From NCBI GenBank assembly GCA_947627435.1, contig CANQWB010000005.1, positions 1 to 50,354 of the forward strand: DNA of 50,354 bases. The letters run 5' to 3'. A program made the position numbers and the translations under genes. The notes under the pieces are model-generated. The model was not told the origin of the DNA and did no database searches. It saw only the letters and a program-made list of their open reading frames with translations. Every line of letters starts with the position of its first letter. The first letter of the stretch is position 1. The stretch is from an uncultured Bacilli bacterium (lineage in GTDB: Bacteria; Bacillota_I; Bacilli_A; RF39; UBA660). Below, piece after piece: positions 4,285 to 50,286 of this stretch.

Positions 4285-6501
4285 ATGGCAAAAAAGAAGA
4301 AAAGAAAAGAAACAAAGAAAAAAGGGACGGGTTATCAAACAGAACTAGTTGGTGTATTATTAATTATTATTGCTGTTATTGGATTTCTTCCCAATACCGG
4401 TATTGTAGGCAATTTTATCAGTAGTTTTGCTGTATTCTTAGTTGGAACTTGGTATAATCCGCTGTTAATCGCTGTGATGTTAATTGGTGGATATATGATT
4501 GTAAAAAGAGAAAAACCAGATTTTTTTACTTCCAAATTAATTGGTTTTTATATTTTCCTAGCTGCTATTTTAATTTTTTCTCATATCAAATACCTACAAA
4601 ATGAAACATTAAAAGGTTTTGATATTGTGGTAGAGACAGTCAATAACTTTATGGCTAGCCCTAATAATCGTATGAATTTAGGTGGGGGAACTTTAGGTGC
4701 TATATTATCTGCTTTGTGTATGTGGGGATTTGACATCAATGGAACTAAGATAGTAGCATGGGCTCTTTTGATTTGTGGATTCATTTTATTTACTGGATTT
4801 TCTTTCTATGATATAGTCAAATGGTGTATCGCAAAAATGAAGCAAGGCATTCATTTTGAGAAGAAAGAAAAGAAGAGTAAACATATTAAAGAAGTAGAAG
4901 AACAGTATGAAAACGATAATAAAATTATAGTTTCTTCTGTAGATGAATTAATTCATATTAATGATGATAGAGATAGCAAAGAAGATAAAATGAAAGTCAA
5001 CGAGGAAACGGATGAAACTCTAGCAGAATCTTCCACGAATCATTATGTATATCCTCCAATGAGTTTATTATCGAAACCTCCTAAAAAGCAAAATGGTGAA
5101 AATAAAGAAATTATCAATCATAATGTGGAAGTGTTACATCAAGTGTTATTGGACTTTGGAGTGGAAGCAAAAGTAGTTGCAATTAATCCTGGACCTGCTG
5201 TAACACAATATGAAATGGAAGTACGTTCTGGGACAAAGCTCAGTAAAATTGTAAGTTTGCATAGTGAAATTGCGCTTGCTTTAGCTGCAAAAGATGTTCG
5301 TATTCAAGCACCTATTCCAGGTAAATCGACCATTGGGGTTGAAATTCCAAACAAAGTAACCACAATGGTAACAGTACGTGAAATCTTAGAAAGTGTTCCT
5401 TCGCAACTTCGAGAATCTAAATTATTAGTTGCTTTGGGACGCGATATTATGGGAAGACCACAATATTGCGAAATTAACAAAACGCCACACTTACTGGTTG
5501 CTGGTAGTACAGGAAGTGGGAAATCGGTTTGTATCAATAGTATGCTGGTATCTATCTTAATGCGTAGTAAACCAGATGAAGTAAAATTGGTACTTGTCGA
5601 TCCCAAAAAAGTAGAACTTTCTATGTATAATGGGGTACCACATTTACTTGCACCAGTTGTAACAGACCCTAAAAAAGCAAATATTGCACTGAAAAAAATT
5701 GTAGCTGAAATGGATGACCGTTATGAACGCTTTAGCCGTACAGGTACCAAGAATATAGCGGGTTATAATGCGTATATTGATCAGAAAAATGCGTCTTTAC
5801 CAGAAGAAGATAAAATGAAACATATGCCATTTATTGTAGTTGTAATCGATGAACTTGCAGATTTAATGCTGGTAGCTGCCAAAGAAGTCGAAGATTCTAT
5901 CATGCGTATTACACAAATGGCACGTGCAGCTGGAATTCACTTAATCGTCGCAACACAAAGACCTAGTACCGATGTCATTACAGGGGTAGTTAAAGCCAAT
6001 ATTCCATCACGAATTGCTTTTGCGGTTTCCAGTGGAATTGACTCTCGAACGATTTTAGATGAAGTAGGAGCTGAAAAATTATTAGGAAAAGGGGATATGT
6101 TATTTTCGCCACAAGGTGAAAATATTCCCATTCGTATTCAAGGAACCTATCTTTCTGATGAAGAAATTAAAGCAGTAGTCGATCATACTATCAAACAACA
6201 AATCGCAAAATATGATGAAACCTTACTTATGGATGAGGAAGAAATGCATGCGACTACTATGCAAGAAAGTGGTGGCCACGGTGATTATGAAGAACCTCTT
6301 TATAATGAAATTGTGGAATTTGTTGTAACACAAGGAAAAGCAAGTGCCTCTTTATTACAAAGAAGATTCCGTTTAGGATACAATCGTGCGGCAAGATGTA
6401 TTGATTTATTAGAAGAACGAGGAATTATAGGACCTAGTAATGGTTCAAAGCCAAGAGAAGTACTAGTAAAATTAGAACAAAATGGGGAAGAAGAAGACTA
6501 A
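4285..6501 (+). CDS. ftsK: DNA translocase FtsK/SpoIIIE
   Basis: N-terminal TM segments, Walker A (GSTGSGKS), a VVVIDELADL box and a C-terminal gamma/winged-helix region (LLQRRFRLGYNRAARCIDLLEERGIIGP). The start was set at ATG 4285, 8 nt after AGGAGG; the ORF track opens at 4267. Confidence 0.93.
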   Translation: MAKKKKRKETKKKGTGYQTELVGVLLIIIAVIGFLPNTGIVGNFISSFAVFLVGTWYNPLLIAVMLIGGYMIVKREKPDFFTSKLIGFYIFLAAILIFSHIKYLQNETLKGFDIVVETVNNFMASPNNRMNLGGGTLGAILSALCMWGFDINGTKIVAWALLICGFILFTGFSFYDIVKWCIAKMKQGIHFEKKEKKSKHIKEVEEQYENDNKIIVSSVDELIHINDDRDSKEDKMKVNEETDETLAESSTNHYVYPPMSLLSKPPKKQNGENKEIINHNVEVLHQVLLDFGVEAKVVAINPGPAVTQYEMEVRSGTKLSKIVSLHSEIALALAAKDVRIQAPIPGKSTIGVEIPNKVTTMVTVREILESVPSQLRESKLLVALGRDIMGRPQYCEINKTPHLLVAGSTGSGKSVCINSMLVSILMRSKPDEVKLVLVDPKKVELSMYNGVPHLLAPVVTDPKKANIALKKIVAEMDDRYERFSRTGTKNIAGYNAYIDQKNASLPEEDKMKHMPFIVVVIDELADLMLVAAKEVEDSIMRITQMARAAGIHLIVATQRPSTDVITGVVKANIPSRIAFAVSSGIDSRTILDEVGAEKLLGKGDMLFSPQGENIPIRIQGTYLSDEEIKAVVDHTIKQQIAKYDETLLMDEEEMHATTMQESGGHGDYEEPLYNEIVEFVVTQGKASASLLQRRFRLGYNRAARCIDLLEERGIIGPSNGSKPREVLVKLEQNGEEED

Positions 6502-40365: not shown

Positions 40366-41160
40366 ATGGCAAGGTATTGTTTGAATATACAGGATGGTTA
40401 TTCCAATCATTTTTATGTACCTATGGGACGTGGTAAGGAACTGGCACGTGAAAAAGCAGAGTTGTATGAAATTGATTTAATTACAACGACTTTAGGAGAA
40501 AATGATTTTATTGACAAGTTAAAGGAATTACATATTGCACCTATGCAATTTGATTGGAACTTCGTAGAAGGTTCTGTGCAATATATAGTCAATCAAGAGG
40601 TTCACTGTTTACCACTGATATTTGAACGAGATCCTTTATTATTAAAAATAATTCAAGTGCATAATAAATATCGTTATCATTTGGGTATGAGTGAAGCACA
40701 ACTTATCCATAAGATTACAGAACCAGGAGCACAATTGCCATATGATTTAATTGATATGTTACATTCTATTATCCACTATCGTGATGATATATTACAATTG
40801 GTATCTCAAAATAAAGAACTTTTGAATGATCCAAATTTATCTAAAAAATTAAAAGAACTCATATATGTATGGATGCAATGTAATACTTATGATGAAAAAA
40901 GAGAATACGAACATGATCTTTTGAGGCAGATGTTATCTTATATTAATTTACGTAGATTAAAAGCCATGGAATATGGGATTCATATGTATCAAGCGATTGT
41001 AGATATACCACAAGTATCAAAAAATAATCTAACCCAACCATATGGTTTTCCAGAAAAGGATGATTCCGTTGATCCAGATGAATATGCTTTTTTAACAGAA
41101 GAAGAGTTAGCTCAAATGTATGGTGAAGTAGAAGAGGATGAAAAATCACATGGAAGATAA
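40366..41160 (+). CDS. Hypothetical protein (264 aa, acidic C-terminus)
   Basis: Good RBS (AGGTGA). No motif recognised by eye. Confidence 0.5.
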   Translation: MARYCLNIQDGYSNHFYVPMGRGKELAREKAELYEIDLITTTLGENDFIDKLKELHIAPMQFDWNFVEGSVQYIVNQEVHCLPLIFERDPLLLKIIQVHNKYRYHLGMSEAQLIHKITEPGAQLPYDLIDMLHSIIHYRDDILQLVSQNKELLNDPNLSKKLKELIYVWMQCNTYDEKREYEHDLLRQMLSYINLRRLKAMEYGIHMYQAIVDIPQVSKNNLTQPYGFPEKDDSVDPDEYAFLTEEELAQMYGEVEEDEKSHGR

Positions 41161-42043
41161 ATATTTACATTTATTTTTAGATTTTTTGCAACGAAAGAAT
41201 CAGTCTAATTATACTCTGATATCTTACCGAAATGATTTAATCCATTTCTTCCATTTTTTAAATACAGAATCTATAGCATTAAAAAATACTGATTACAAAG
41301 TTATTCGTAATTATTTGGCTTATTTATATTCAAAAAATTATTCGAAACGTACGATTGCAAGACATATTAGTTGTTTACGTAGTTTTTATAAATATTTAAT
41401 GCAAGAACATATCATTTCTAAAAATCCTATGAAATTAATATCCAATCCTAAATTGGATCATACTTTACCTAAATTTTTATATTTTCAGGAATTGGAATCA
41501 TTATTATCCATTCCAGATCAAAGTACACCATTTGGATTGCGTGATGCAGTTATTTTAGAATTATTATATTCTACAGGTGTTCGTGTGAGTGAACTTGTAT
41601 GTATCCAGATAAAAGATATTGATTTTTATGATAAAAAAATAAAGGTATTTGGAAAAGGCAGTAAAGAACGATATGTTTTGTATGGTACTCAATTACAAGT
41701 ATTACTCCAAAAATATCTTTCAGGTTCAAGAAATGAATTGTTGAAAGGAAAACAACATGATTTTCTTTTTCCCAATCATTTAGGGAATCCTCTTACGACT
41801 GCGGGTATTCGTACTATTTTAAATAAAGTGATACAACAAGGTGCTTTAAAGTTTCATATTAGCCCCCATGTACTTAGACATACTTTTGCGACACATATGT
41901 TAGATGAAGGCGCAGATTTAAAAAGTGTGCAAGAGTTGTTAGGCCACGAAAATTTATCGACAACACAAATTTATACGCATGTATCCAATGAACATTTAAG
42001 ACAAGTGTATTTGAGTGCTCATCCTAGAGCAAATCATAAATAA
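41138..42043 (+). CDS. xerC: Tyrosine recombinase XerC/XerD family (CodV-like)
   Basis: N-terminal SAM-like domain. The catalytic region reads GVRVSEL...HVLRHTFATHML..GADLKSVQELLGHENLSTTQIYTHV. The start is ambiguous (ATG 41138 or 41150). Confidence 0.85.
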   Translation: MKNHMEDKYLHLFLDFLQRKNQSNYTLISYRNDLIHFFHFLNTESIALKNTDYKVIRNYLAYLYSKNYSKRTIARHISCLRSFYKYLMQEHIISKNPMKLISNPKLDHTLPKFLYFQELESLLSIPDQSTPFGLRDAVILELLYSTGVRVSELVCIQIKDIDFYDKKIKVFGKGSKERYVLYGTQLQVLLQKYLSGSRNELLKGKQHDFLFPNHLGNPLTTAGIRTILNKVIQQGALKFHISPHVLRHTFATHMLDEGADLKSVQELLGHENLSTTQIYTHVSNEHLRQVYLSAHPRANHK

Positions 42044-47408: not shown

Positions 47409-47436
47409 AAAATCTACCTATTTTATGGTAGATTTT
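47409..47436 (-). terminator. Hairpin immediately after the ABC gene stop
   Basis: Stem AAAATCTACC/GGTAGATTTT. The flanking T/A tracts are weak. Confidence 0.4.
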
Positions 47437-49178
47437 TAATCTATGGCTTCGCTTTTATAAAGATTTTGATATACTTTCGATTTTTTCATAAGTTCATCGT
47501 GAGTACCTGACTCAAATATGCATCCTTTATCGACAACATAGATAATATCAGCATCTTGAATTGTTGAAAGACGGTGAGCAATAATTATAATTGTATGATC
47601 ATGTACTAAATTATCGATAGCCTTTTTTATATATTCTTGCGATTGGTTATCAAGTGCAGATGTTGCTTCATCTAATAAAATTACTTTAGAATCTTTAGAC
47701 AAAGTTCTAGCAATTGCTAATCTTTGTTTTTGACCTCCTGATAAATTAACACCACCTTCACCTAAAATCGTATCATATTTTTTAGGCAGTGATTCAATGT
47801 AATCGTCTAAATACGCCATTTTAGTATATTTGCGAACATCAGCTAATTTGATTTTTTCGTCGATTAGACGAAAATTATCCATTATCGACCTATTAAAAAT
47901 AAAAGGTTCTTGTCTGATAATCGAGATATGACGTCTTAATTCGTCTTCAGTTAAGTTTTTGATATTTACACCATCCAGTAAAATTTCTCCTTCATTAGGA
48001 TCAAAAATACGTGTAAGTAAATTAAATAATGTTGTTTTACCTTGACCCGATGCACCAACAATCGCAATTTTTTTTCCAGGCTCTAAAGTTATACTAAAAT
48101 TATTTAAGGTTGAATCTTCATTTGGATAATTAAAAGTAACATTTTTAAATTCAATTTTGCCAATAACATTGTTTATAGTTTTATCACCAAAGGTAACATC
48201 AGGATATAATCTATTTTCCAATAATTCATTAACTCTTTCTAAAGACACAACAACCTTTTGATATGTTTCGGAAATATCATTGATACTTTCGATAATCCAT
48301 GTGAATCGGTAAATATAGTAAGTCATCGCGATGAAGAATGTTAAATTAGTTTTTCCTTGATAAAGTAGAATTAAACAAGTCAAAAAACATCCTACTTCCA
48401 AAGTGCTTCTTAAAATTTGAGAGATAAAATTGAAATTTTTTTGAATATCAGTTTCTTGTAAAGATGCTCTATAGATATCTTTATTAATATTTTTAACATC
48501 TTTAAGTAAATGATTTTTAATACCTAATGTATTTAATTCTCTTATACCTCTAATTGATTCATTTACAATTGTTATAAAGCGATCTTGTTCTTTTTTTCGA
48601 TTCTTTTGAGAATTTTTAAGTTGAATATTAAATTTTTTTACAAAAAATGCAAAAATAATAATAAAAACAATTATTTCTATGGCAATTATCCATGAATTAA
48701 AGATAATATAAATAAATATAGCTATTGTTCCTAATAAATAAGTAAACATATTTAATAATCTTCCTATTATAGAGGATAAACTATCAGCATCACTCACAAT
48801 GCGATTGATTATTTCTCCACTTGATTTTTCTTCATAAGCTACTGCCGGTAAATTAAGAGCTTTAGCATATGTGTTATAACTCACTTTCCTCGTTATACGG
48901 GATTCAATTTTTAATAACATCGTTGAAGCCCAATTATTTAGAATCGCATTTGCAATAATGCTTATAAAAAAATAAATAAGTAAGTAAGTCATTGCTAATT
49001 TTAAATTCAGGTTAGTAATTGCTTCCACTGTAGCGCCATTTAAATAACCAGTAAGGGTTTCTGAAGCAGCTACAATAATATAGGCAATAACAGCAATAAT
49101 TAACTTCAATTTATCTGTTTCTAAAAAAGTAAGTAAGGAAATGAGTTCATTCTTGTTCTTTTTCTTTGCTTTTTTCAT
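47436..49178 (-). CDS. ABC exporter, fused permease-ATPase (MsbA/multidrug/peptide-exporter type, no C39 peptidase domain)
   Basis: Six-TM N-terminal half. Walker A GASGQGKTT, signature LSGGQKQRLAIAR, Walker B ILLDEATSALD. Confidence 0.9.
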   Translation of the reverse strand: MKKAKKKNKNELISLLTFLETDKLKLIIAVIAYIIVAASETLTGYLNGATVEAITNLNLKLAMTYLLIYFFISIIANAILNNWASTMLLKIESRITRKVSYNTYAKALNLPAVAYEEKSSGEIINRIVSDADSLSSIIGRLLNMFTYLLGTIAIFIYIIFNSWIIAIEIIVFIIIFAFFVKKFNIQLKNSQKNRKKEQDRFITIVNESIRGIRELNTLGIKNHLLKDVKNINKDIYRASLQETDIQKNFNFISQILRSTLEVGCFLTCLILLYQGKTNLTFFIAMTYYIYRFTWIIESINDISETYQKVVVSLERVNELLENRLYPDVTFGDKTINNVIGKIEFKNVTFNYPNEDSTLNNFSITLEPGKKIAIVGASGQGKTTLFNLLTRIFDPNEGEILLDGVNIKNLTEDELRRHISIIRQEPFIFNRSIMDNFRLIDEKIKLADVRKYTKMAYLDDYIESLPKKYDTILGEGGVNLSGGQKQRLAIARTLSKDSKVILLDEATSALDNQSQEYIKKAIDNLVHDHTIIIIAHRLSTIQDADIIYVVDKGCIFESGTHDELMKKSKVYQNLYKSEAID

Positions 49179-49201: not shown

Positions 49202-49230
49202 ATTATAAATAACAAAATTTTTATTGTCAA
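49202..49230 (-). promoter_or_regulatory. Consensus promoter of the ABC exporter gene
   Basis: On the minus strand: TTGACA (49230..49225), 17 nt, TATAAT (49207..49202). Confidence 0.6.
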
Positions 49231-49355
49231 ATATTGCGATTATTATTTTATAAGTAGTCGATTTTAGAATAGAGTTCTATTTTTGTGCAATAAATTCTTA
49301 GTTTTATATCTTATCTATTTCCAATAAGATTATGGCATTATGTTATGGCATTATG

Positions 49356-49391
49356 GCACAAGTCGCTATTAAAGAAAAACAAGCAAAATAA
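49356..49391 (+). pseudogene. Remnant of a ppdK 3' end (AQVAIKEKQAK-stop)
   Basis: 49356..49376 matches ppdK 47061..47081 at 20/21 nt, in the same reading frame, and reaches a stop 5 codons later. The intact gene reads AQAAIKEGMNKE-stop. Confidence 0.6.
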
Positions 49392-49506
49392 TAAGTAATT
49401 AGGGATAAGTAAAAAATGGTATTTAGTCTTTTTTCTTTAAAAAAGATGAATTTTGTTTGTAAGAATTAACTAAACTAGAATTGCATATATTATATATGTA
49501 TACTAT

Positions 49507-49535
49507 TTGACATTTTCATAAAAATATAGTATATT
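49507..49535 (+). promoter_or_regulatory. Promoter of the repeat-RNA/toxin operon
   Basis: TTGACA (49507..49512), 17 nt, TATATT (49530..49535). Confidence 0.65.
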
Positions 49536-49558
49536 TATATTGCACTTAAAAGTGTGAA

Positions 49559-49660
49559 AATGTTTCTCGCTTCCGGGTGGCTAGCGAGTAATAAATAATC
49601 CCGGTCGACAATGTTTCTCGCTTCCGGGTGGCTAGCGAGTAATAAATGATCCCGGTTGAA
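49559..49660 (+). ncRNA. Candidate type III antitoxin RNA: 2 (plus about 0.1) tandem 51-nt repeats with hairpin/pseudoknot potential
   Basis: Units 49559..49609 and 49610..49660 are 48/51 identical. Each has stem CTCGCT/AGCGAG, and loop CCGGG is complementary to the downstream CCCGG. There is no ORF. The repeats sit between a promoter and a terminator, upstream of the toxin-like ORF. Confidence 0.7.
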
Positions 49661-49670
49661 AATGTAGAAT

Positions 49671-49704
49671 AACTCTATCTTACGATGGAGTTTTCTTTTG
49701 TTTT
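49671..49704 (+). terminator. Intrinsic terminator between the repeat RNA and the toxin ORF
   Basis: 9-bp stem AACTCTATC/GATGGAGTT (one G-U) with loop TTAC, followed by TTCTTTTGTTTT. Confidence 0.75.
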
Positions 49705-49733
49705 ATGGTATATTATTTATGGAGTTGATGACA

Positions 49734-50195
49734 ATGGAAATAAGAACAGGATATTTATATCACATCAAGGATGAATATTTTGATGTCGTTAATGATGAAA
49801 ATTTAATGCAAAACCATGAAAGAGGGAAAAAAAGGCCCACTTATTTTACAATTAAAGACAAAAATATTTTATGGTTTATTCCCATTAGTTCTAAAATTGA
49901 TAAATATCAAAAAATAGTTAACAAAAAAATAGAAAAATATGGTTTTTGTAATACTATATTAATAGAGAAGATTTTTGATGAGGATGCTGCTATATTATTA
50001 CAAAATGCTTTTCCAACCTTAGAAAAATATATTGATCATGTACATACAGTAGATGGGAAACCAGCTAGAGTTCCCGAAAAATTAGAAAAAATTATACTTA
50101 AAAATTTTGAAAATTTAATGAAACTTCATATGAGAGGAATCAAAGTGTTTTTCACTGATATTGATAAACTAAAAGATAAAATGAATAAGGCATAA
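49734..50195 (+). CDS. Candidate type III toxin (ToxN/AbiQ/CptN-like endoribonuclease), 153 aa
   Basis: GGAG lies 9 nt upstream of ATG 49734; the ORF-track start 49698 lies inside the terminator tail. The N-terminal pattern is YLYHIKDEYFDVV...RPTYFTI....ILWFIPISSKIDKYQK. As I recall them, ToxN/AbiQ read Y.I...Y..YL...RP..G....YLAPLTSPK. The protein is small and basic. Confidence 0.65.
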   Translation: MEIRTGYLYHIKDEYFDVVNDENLMQNHERGKKRPTYFTIKDKNILWFIPISSKIDKYQKIVNKKIEKYGFCNTILIEKIFDEDAAILLQNAFPTLEKYIDHVHTVDGKPARVPEKLEKIILKNFENLMKLHMRGIKVFFTDIDKLKDKMNKA

Positions 50196-50248: not shown

Positions 50249-50286
50249 AAGCTAAGATGATTGAATATAAATCTTAGCTTTTTTTA
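50249..50286 (+). terminator. Intrinsic terminator after the toxin gene (T2), sequence-related to T1
   Basis: 10-bp stem AAGCTAAGAT/ATCTTAGCTT plus T-run. It shares CTAAGATGATT.AATAT..ATCTTAG with 47237..47276. Confidence 0.75.

Follow-up and report, generated by a model that had tools for sequence, protein, structure and literature searches.

The locus described here lies at positions 49507-50195 of a 50,354-nt stretch of DNA from an uncultured Bacilli bacterium of the RF39 lineage (GenBank assembly GCA_947627435.1, contig CANQWB010000005.1), the whole of which is referred to below as the window, and it consists of a short tandem-repeat array followed by the toxin gene of a putative CptIN-family type III toxin-antitoxin (TA) module. 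An earlier note on the same DNA had listed a promoter, two 51-nt repeats in an array free of open reading frames (ORFs), a terminator and a GGAG placed nine nucleotides before the ATG of a basic 153-aa ORF, and all of these are present as stated. The features of the locus are the following:

49507..49535, plus strand: predicted promoter P1 of the cptI antitoxin RNA (-35 TTGACA at 49507-12, 17-nt spacer, -10 TATATT at 49530-35), conserved in related loci
49542..49555, plus strand: 5' leader hairpin GCACU-UAAA-AGUGU, just before the first unit junction, with a function that is inferred
49558..49608, plus strand: CptI unit 1, 51 nt, with 5' tail AAAUGUUU, helix S1 (49566-71 with 49583-88), L1 (U49572), helix S2 (49573-77 with 49600-04), A-rich L2 (49589-99) and 3' tail UCGA, drawn from repeat detection, the layout of a crystallised RNA and covariation
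49609..49659, plus strand: CptI unit 2, 51 nt, which begins CAAUG rather than AAAUG
49660..49665, plus strand: third junction AAAUGU, opening a third unit and expected to supply the 3' processing site for unit 2
49671..49704, plus strand: intrinsic terminator in the gap between cptI and cptN, with a 9-bp stem, a UUAC loop and a U-rich tail
49706..49714, plus strand: candidate promoter P2 for the toxin, a predicted extended -10 element TGgTATATT (hexamer at 49709-14) without a good -35
49721..49724, plus strand: ribosome-binding site (RBS) GGAG, 9 nt 5' of the start codon, conserved in related loci
49734..50195, plus strand: cptN, 153 aa and stop, a predicted endoribonuclease with the catalytic motif S52-S53-K54, supported by matches to NF047359 and 4RMO_A and with 2622 homologues
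50250..50286, plus strand: probable terminator 3' of cptN (AGCUAAGAU...AUCUUAGCU, 12-nt loop, then a T-run), read from the sequence and outside the conserved module

The 153-aa ORF (ATG at 49734, stop codon ending at 50195, pI 9.1) is matched by the NCBIfam equivalog NF047359, "type III toxin-antitoxin system CptIN family toxin", with an E-value of 4.7e-47 and 159.6 bits against a curated cutoff of 90. The match spans the whole profile (positions 1-150 of 150), and CptIN is the sole NCBIfam model matched. The only match in a PDB sequence search was 4RMO_A, the CptN of Eubacterium rectale, hereafter CptN(Er) (E 1.3e-20, residues 3-148), and a pairwise BLASTP comparison of the two proteins gave 38% identity over 147 aa (E 4e-25). 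The earlier note had named both CptN-family models and the Pfam family ToxN_toxin (PF13958) as relatives to look for; the former was found, the latter was not, the Pfam scan at E<=10 returning two sub-threshold zinc-finger matches only. Type III families are delimited by toxin sequence similarity. Because the NCBIfam CptIN model matches and Pfam ToxN_toxin does not, the locus is assigned to CptIN, and membership of ToxIN/AbiQ was dropped. The note's proposal of a type III TA locus is thus upheld by toxin homology, layout and the covariation described below, while its ToxIN/AbiQ-type toxin is not. The same applies to the FIPISSK motif, which the note had likened to ToxN/AbiQ: in the alignment it falls on the catalytic Ser-Ser-Arg motif of CptN(Er) and is a CptN motif, not one of ToxN. 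The active site of CptN was described by Rao et al. 2015 (PMC4627078) as this Ser-Ser-Arg triad together with Asp81, Ser85 and Tyr104, which in a HMMER alignment correspond to S52-S53-K54, D82, A85 and H104 of the window protein. The Ser-Ser pair and the Asp are thereby conserved between the two proteins. Four of these residues (S52, S53, K54 and H104) are invariant among 29 relatives; at position 85 the clade consensus has Ser, against Ala in the window protein.

When one genome per GTDB species was scanned, at least 410 genomes proved to encode a relative. The best 80 of these at least 410 were fetched and proved to be uncultured gut Bacilli or Bacillota metagenome-assembled genomes (MAGs), with 72-92% protein identity. 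If the module is type III, tandem repeats are expected upstream of homologous ORFs, as the earlier note had pointed out, and they were found in 67 of 71 related loci whose upstream sequence extended to 200 nt or more, as arrays with a period of 49, 51 or 52 nt and about 2.1-2.2 copies. The window itself holds a single array according to Tandem Repeats Finder (49556..49665, period 51, 2.2 copies, 93% matches, score 199), which forms a GC island of 48% against 31% for the window. No cptI-like units beyond the known two turned up when the window was searched for more, and the repeats hold no meaningful ORF, the only frame being a trivial 21-aa one that opens with TTG on the minus strand. The limits of the units are uncertain by about 2 nt. 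Three of 51 positions (49609, 49648 and 49657) distinguish unit 1 from unit 2, all of which fall outside both of the helices proposed earlier, as the note had held.

The window unit can be written as AAAUGUUU-CUCGCU-U-CCGGG-UGGCU-AGCGAG-UAAUAAAUAAU-CCCGG-UCGA, that is, a single-stranded 5' tail ending in UUU, the 5' arm of S1, a 1-nt L1, the 5' arm of S2, the S1 3' arm, an A-rich L2 (UAAUAAAUAAU) containing AUAAAU, the S2 3' arm and a YGA tail, giving an H-type pseudoknot with a 6-bp S1 and a 5-bp S2. To assess this structure across the clade, 70 arrays were split into single units, which yielded 54 distinct sequences that were aligned. Standard pairs occupied 96.5% of the alignment cells of the proposed pseudoknot, and six of the 11 pairs showed changes on both sides (55 cells), a covariation score that none of 500 shuffles reached. 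In control alignments in which the partners were slid by 1-3 columns, pairing fell to 27-48% with no compensatory changes. The pseudoknot helix S2 was 99.3% paired, with compensatory changes in four of its five pairs (CCGGG/CCCGG, CUGGG/CCCAG, CCGAG/CUCGG, CCUGG/CCAGG, CUGGA/UCCAG, CCAGG/CCUGG and CUAGG/CCUAG). An A stands opposite an A at the first S2 pair in both units of locus L081 and in the second unit of L078. Variants of S1 were CUCGC/GCGAG, UUCGC/GCGAA and UCCGC/GCGGA. Both helices of the CptI unit are therefore supported by covariation, and the H-type pseudoknot that had been proposed from the two helices is borne out over the 54 distinct units. The 5' tail AAUGUUU is invariant in every unit, as expected for a processed tail held by the protein.

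The array is preceded by P1, which matches 11 of 12 consensus positions in a promoter scan. Promoter-like matches are common in a window of 31% GC (17 found, 13.7 expected from shuffles), so the credibility of P1 comes mainly from its conservation: its hexamers and their spacing are near-invariant across about 60 related loci. Between P1 and the first unit, the leader hairpin appears in both the minimum-free-energy and the centroid folds, and its arms covary across loci (CACUU/AAGUG, GUAC/GUAC, CUACUU/AAGUAG and CCAUU/AAUGG). The hairpin, with which the cptI transcript is predicted to begin, may serve to stabilise the 5' end. An 8-bp inverted repeat (TATACTAT...ATAGTATA, at about 49498..49532) was observed flanking the P1 -35 and spacer, and GTATAC-like motifs recur in many loci, both upstream of P1 and after the terminator. 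These elements could represent an operator, or could be merely AT-rich sequence resembling a -10 element.

Comparison with the E. rectale CptIN system (PDB 4RMO) shows a shared architecture. The toxins are homologous over their full length, both loci are chromosomal, and in both a promoter, two tandem repeats, a terminator and the toxin gene follow one another on one strand. The 45-nt CptI(Er) unit, recovered from the primer table of Rao et al. 2015 as AAGUUUACCACUGACCGAUAUGUGGUAUAUAAAUGGUCGGGUUGA, fits all the residues named in the text of that paper (G13, A27, A29, U30, G35, G44 and A45), and, as a positive control, metagenomic E. rectale-type loci carry two head-to-tail copies of exactly this unit, with a terminator and cptN downstream. 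It shares with the window unit an AAxUUU 5' tail, S1, a 1-nt L1, S2, an A-rich L2 with AUAAAU and a GGUYGA 3' end. The window unit is longer, at 51 nt, with its six additional nucleotides distributed among the 5' tail, an extra S1 pair, the segment separating S2 from S1, and L2. Two further features of the clade, the 5' leader hairpin and the extended -10-like motif that follows the terminator, are missing from E. rectale loci.

The earlier note considered the 51-nt unit unusually long and the presence of only about two copies distinctive, and suggested a separate subfamily on the basis of a range of 34-45 nt. This range was too narrow. Table 2 of Blower et al. 2012 (PMC3401426) lists 33 cptIN loci with units of 40-48 nt (mean 44.8) in 1.9-3.4 copies, toxIN units of 31-62 nt and tenpIN units of 39-57 nt, so that type III units extend to 62 nt. 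The 49-52 nt of the present clade are just outside the 2012 cptIN range (51 nt being 3 nt past it) and unremarkable for type III systems overall; about two copies are ordinary for cptIN, and E. rectale has exactly two.

Similarities to the other families are looser. The window module resembles ToxIN of Pectobacterium and Bacillus, and AbiQ/antiQ, in layout, in the analogous position of a catalytic Ser/Thr-Ser motif and in its presumed logic, in which an endoribonuclease turns its own repeat RNA into inhibitory pseudoknots. ToxI units, in contrast, are about 36 nt long, occur in more copies and form 3:3 triangles. TenpIN systems (Blower et al. 2012; Sci Rep 2025, PMC12283969) share long repeats (39-57 nt, mean 50.9), about two copies and an A-rich loop, and non-identical repeat units like those of the 49-nt sub-clade described below have been reported for them. 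Their toxin nevertheless belongs to a different family.

Toxin homology, the layout of the locus and the two RNA helices are directly supported in our analysis, and taken together these make a chromosomal CptIN type III TA module very probably the correct explanation of the sequence at 49507-50195. From homology with characterised systems we infer its RNA processing, exact cleaved bond, stoichiometry, toxicity and biological role. On this basis, P1 would produce a short non-coding RNA in which a 5' hairpin is followed by two CptI units of 51 nt and the intrinsic terminator, while CptN, a small basic endoribonuclease, would be translated from terminator read-through, from transcripts of the candidate extended -10 promoter, or from both. 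By homology with the E. rectale complex, CptN would cut the repeat RNA after an adenine within the invariant (A/C)AAUG junctions. Each 51-nt product would then fold as an H-type pseudoknot with the A-rich L2 in the minor groove of S1, its single-stranded tails staying in the active sites to give a closed, inactive protein-RNA complex, probably of 2:2 stoichiometry as in the heterotetramer of the CptIN(Er) crystal. Should the supply of antitoxin fall, the unstable RNA would decay, and free CptN would cleave cellular RNA and stop growth.

Several observations weigh against this interpretation. The locus is known from sequence alone and its host is uncultured; an AlphaFold2 model, built from a shallow alignment of 29 close relatives, reached a mean predicted local distance difference test (pLDDT) score of 42.6; and neither a PADLOC model nor an Rfam family matched the locus, the Rfam search at E<=10 giving no relevant family. 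In the RNA, some loci have a T or G immediately before the junction motif, and a C replaces the A of E. rectale at the middle junction. In the protein, three of the described active-site positions differ from CptN(Er), in that Arg53 is replaced by Lys54 (making the triad Ser-Ser-Lys rather than Ser-Ser-Arg), Tyr104 by His104 and Ser85 by Ala85. Such substitutions at active-site or base-specifying positions, together with a chromosomal location flanked by housekeeping genes, might indicate a decaying or domesticated remnant, whose protein has no ribonuclease activity and whose repeats are kept only as a structured leader. We regard this as very improbable. The exchange of Arg for Lys is conservative, and S52, S53, K54 and H104, as noted above, do not vary among the relatives. 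Full-length ORFs are present in 410 species-level genomes, the RNA helices are kept by compensatory changes, and the toxin (74-91% identity) is more conserved than the adjacent pyruvate phosphate dikinase (PPDK; 60-71%). The invariant residues, intact ORFs, compensated helices and toxin conservation point to purifying selection on both parts of the module.

It is also conceivable that the repeats are a cis-acting regulatory leader of the downstream gene, for instance an attenuator or an element that binds a protein or ligand, instead of a trans-acting antitoxin. They sit 5' of a gene and are followed by a terminator, as such a leader would be, and the terminator's 3' arm recurs in the RBS region (AUGGAGUU), so alternative pairings can be envisaged. 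The unit, however, shares its layout and junction motif with the RNA crystallised with the homologous toxin, tandem duplication and invariant junctions fit processing into monomers, and no Rfam cis-regulatory family matched. A cis-acting leader consequently has, in our judgement, hardly any likelihood, and the CptIN antitoxin remains the preferred reading of the array.

The junctions between units merit closer description within this CptIN framework. The second unit opens with CAAUG in all 69 arrays that have a complete second unit, and the first and third junctions read AAAUG where the middle one has CAAUG, the third as xAAAUG in 62 of 69 loci. E. rectale, by comparison, has an A at all three junctions, its middle one reading GA|AAG against GA|CAAUG in the clade. 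Since the base before the motif varies and the middle junction has a C, comparison does not fix the cleaved bond. Alignment with E. rectale suggests GA^AAAUG as the scissile bond; AA^AUG is equally possible, as A2 and A3 of the unit are invariant.

The two units of an array need not be alike. In the 49-nt sub-clade they differ at 9-14 positions and carry distinct S2 helices, each internally complementary; when units were extracted one by one from these loci, S2 complementarity was perfect. Relatives of CptN(Er) at 78-80% likewise show compensated differences between units. The literature describes cptIN repeats as nearly identical and emphasises non-identical ones for tenpIN.

The cptI terminator comprises a 9-bp stem (49671..49692), a 4-nt UUAC loop and the tail TTCTTTTGTT, with the stem folding at -9.7 kcal/mol. 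A terminator scan reported two terminator-like sites, compared with 0.4 in shuffles, and a hairpin and U-tract occur in 66 of 69 related loci, where the arms of the hairpin covary. The scan had a loop limit of 8 nt and for this reason missed the probable terminator after cptN (50250..50286), which has a 12-nt loop.

How the toxin itself is transcribed is less straightforward. The motif TGnTAyAyT occurs at a fixed offset after the terminator in 52 of 69 loci (window copy TGGTATATT, 49706-14), and may represent an extended -10 promoter overlapping the terminator end. If P1 and an efficient terminator yielded CptI only, and the toxin mRNA arose from this promoter, the ratio of antitoxin to toxin would be set by two promoter strengths and not by terminator leakiness. 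Column conservation in the motif is typical of a -10 element, in that TG and hexamer positions 1, 2, 4 and 6 (T1, A2, A4 and T6) reach at least 95% conservation, with variation at the intervening base, position 5 and the neighbours. Divergent loci drift toward the consensus (TGTGCTATAAT, TGATATAAT), and six loci with long spacers (L036, L038, L039, L044, L055 and L071) hold a full TTGACx-17/18-TAyAyT promoter between terminator and toxin. In the archetypal E. rectale locus the U-tract abuts the RBS and leaves no room for a P2-like element, and the motif is therefore no generic by-product of the layout. Against separate transcription, the -35 position in the window matches at only three of six bases, and the predicted start (about 49720-22) would leave almost no leader. 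The loci are moreover closely related, so that conservation could be inherited or could reflect constraints at the mRNA level, and type III loci are presented in reviews as single-promoter operons. A simple promoter scan of the window did not report P2. We accordingly consider separate transcription of the toxin possible yet rather doubtful, and propose the second promoter as a hypothesis drawn from sequence conservation, in which the start would sit on the GGAG itself.

A more speculative idea combines these observations. CptIN in this clade has perhaps been rewired twice, with the two CptI units becoming distinct, separately evolving partners, and the toxin acquiring its own promoter embedded in the antitoxin terminator. 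The notion of distinct partners stems from the unvarying C at the middle junction and from the different, compensated S2 helices of the two units in 49-nt loci. We think it unlikely that both changes took place. If they did, distinct units would suit a 2:2 complex with one RNA of each kind or, alternatively, a dimer left uncut at the middle junction could tether two toxins, and the embedded promoter would uncouple toxin from antitoxin transcription.

The genomic setting of the module is chromosomal. Its neighbours in the window include genes for PPDK, topoisomerase I, a Xer-type recombinase, BadF/HGD-type enzymes, a SpaA-domain surface protein and an ABC transporter. The cptIN module lies directly downstream of ppdK in 33 related loci, and in one of the related loci (L005) it is followed by a small ORF and then by an apparent aspartyl-tRNA synthetase gene, as read from the translation only. 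Only in the window does an ABC transporter gene separate ppdK from the module. At the DNA level, the window resembles the other loci only over about 49460..50183, a module of about 720 bp. Identities of CptN and PPDK across the loci are uncorrelated, which, together with the higher conservation of CptN, hints either that the module is under strong constraint or that lineages have exchanged it at a fixed site in the chromosome.

Three further observations concern these surroundings. The ABC transporter gene (47436..49178, minus strand; ABC_membrane and ABC_tran domains, 580 aa) is preceded by a perfect 12/12 promoter (TTGACA-17-TATAAT, 49202..49230, minus strand). Between the promoter of this gene and the cptIN module is an intergenic short tandem repeat (49329..49358; ATTATGGC in about four copies, or a 13-nt unit in two). 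The tyrosine recombinase gene at 41138..42043 (Phage_integrase and a SAM-like N-terminal domain, 301 aa) adjoins that of topoisomerase I and probably encodes an XerC/D-type chromosomal enzyme as opposed to marking a mobile element.

No DNA match to the locus was found among PLSDB plasmids. A phage origin was also considered. Only one IMG/VR contig has a relative (L081; IMGVR_UViG_3300011008_002676), a two-unit cptIN of 49-nt period at 4820..5480, whose neighbours (HerA/DUF87 ATPase, LPD28 and SpaA-domain genes) are conjugative-looking and not viral; judging by this gene content, the contig resembles an integrative conjugative element, not a phage. As to a role in anti-phage defence, PADLOC returned no match and the window neighbours are housekeeping rather than defence genes. 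ToxIN and AbiQ have proven abortive-infection activity, CptIN so far does not, and the two CptIN loci assayed in E. coli gave an efficiency of plating of about 1, that is, no phage resistance. CptIN(Er) has been reported to stabilise a plasmid.

The locus is thus a further, otherwise ordinary example of the already described CptIN family, with a repeat slightly longer than the published units. Points of interest specific to the clade are the conserved C at the middle junction, units that are non-identical and compensated, a possible promoter of the toxin gene and the higher conservation of the module relative to its housekeeping neighbours, and none of these details alters the understanding of type III TA systems. 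Annotation restricted to genes overlooks the RNA half of CptIN, for which Rfam has no model, whereas the toxin is already covered by the NCBI equivalog model. The present analysis enlarges the small group of CptIN systems described so far by a large clade, matched in at least 410 species-level genomes from uncultured gut Bacilli, and its natural covariation independently supports the pseudoknot known from the single CptIN crystal structure.

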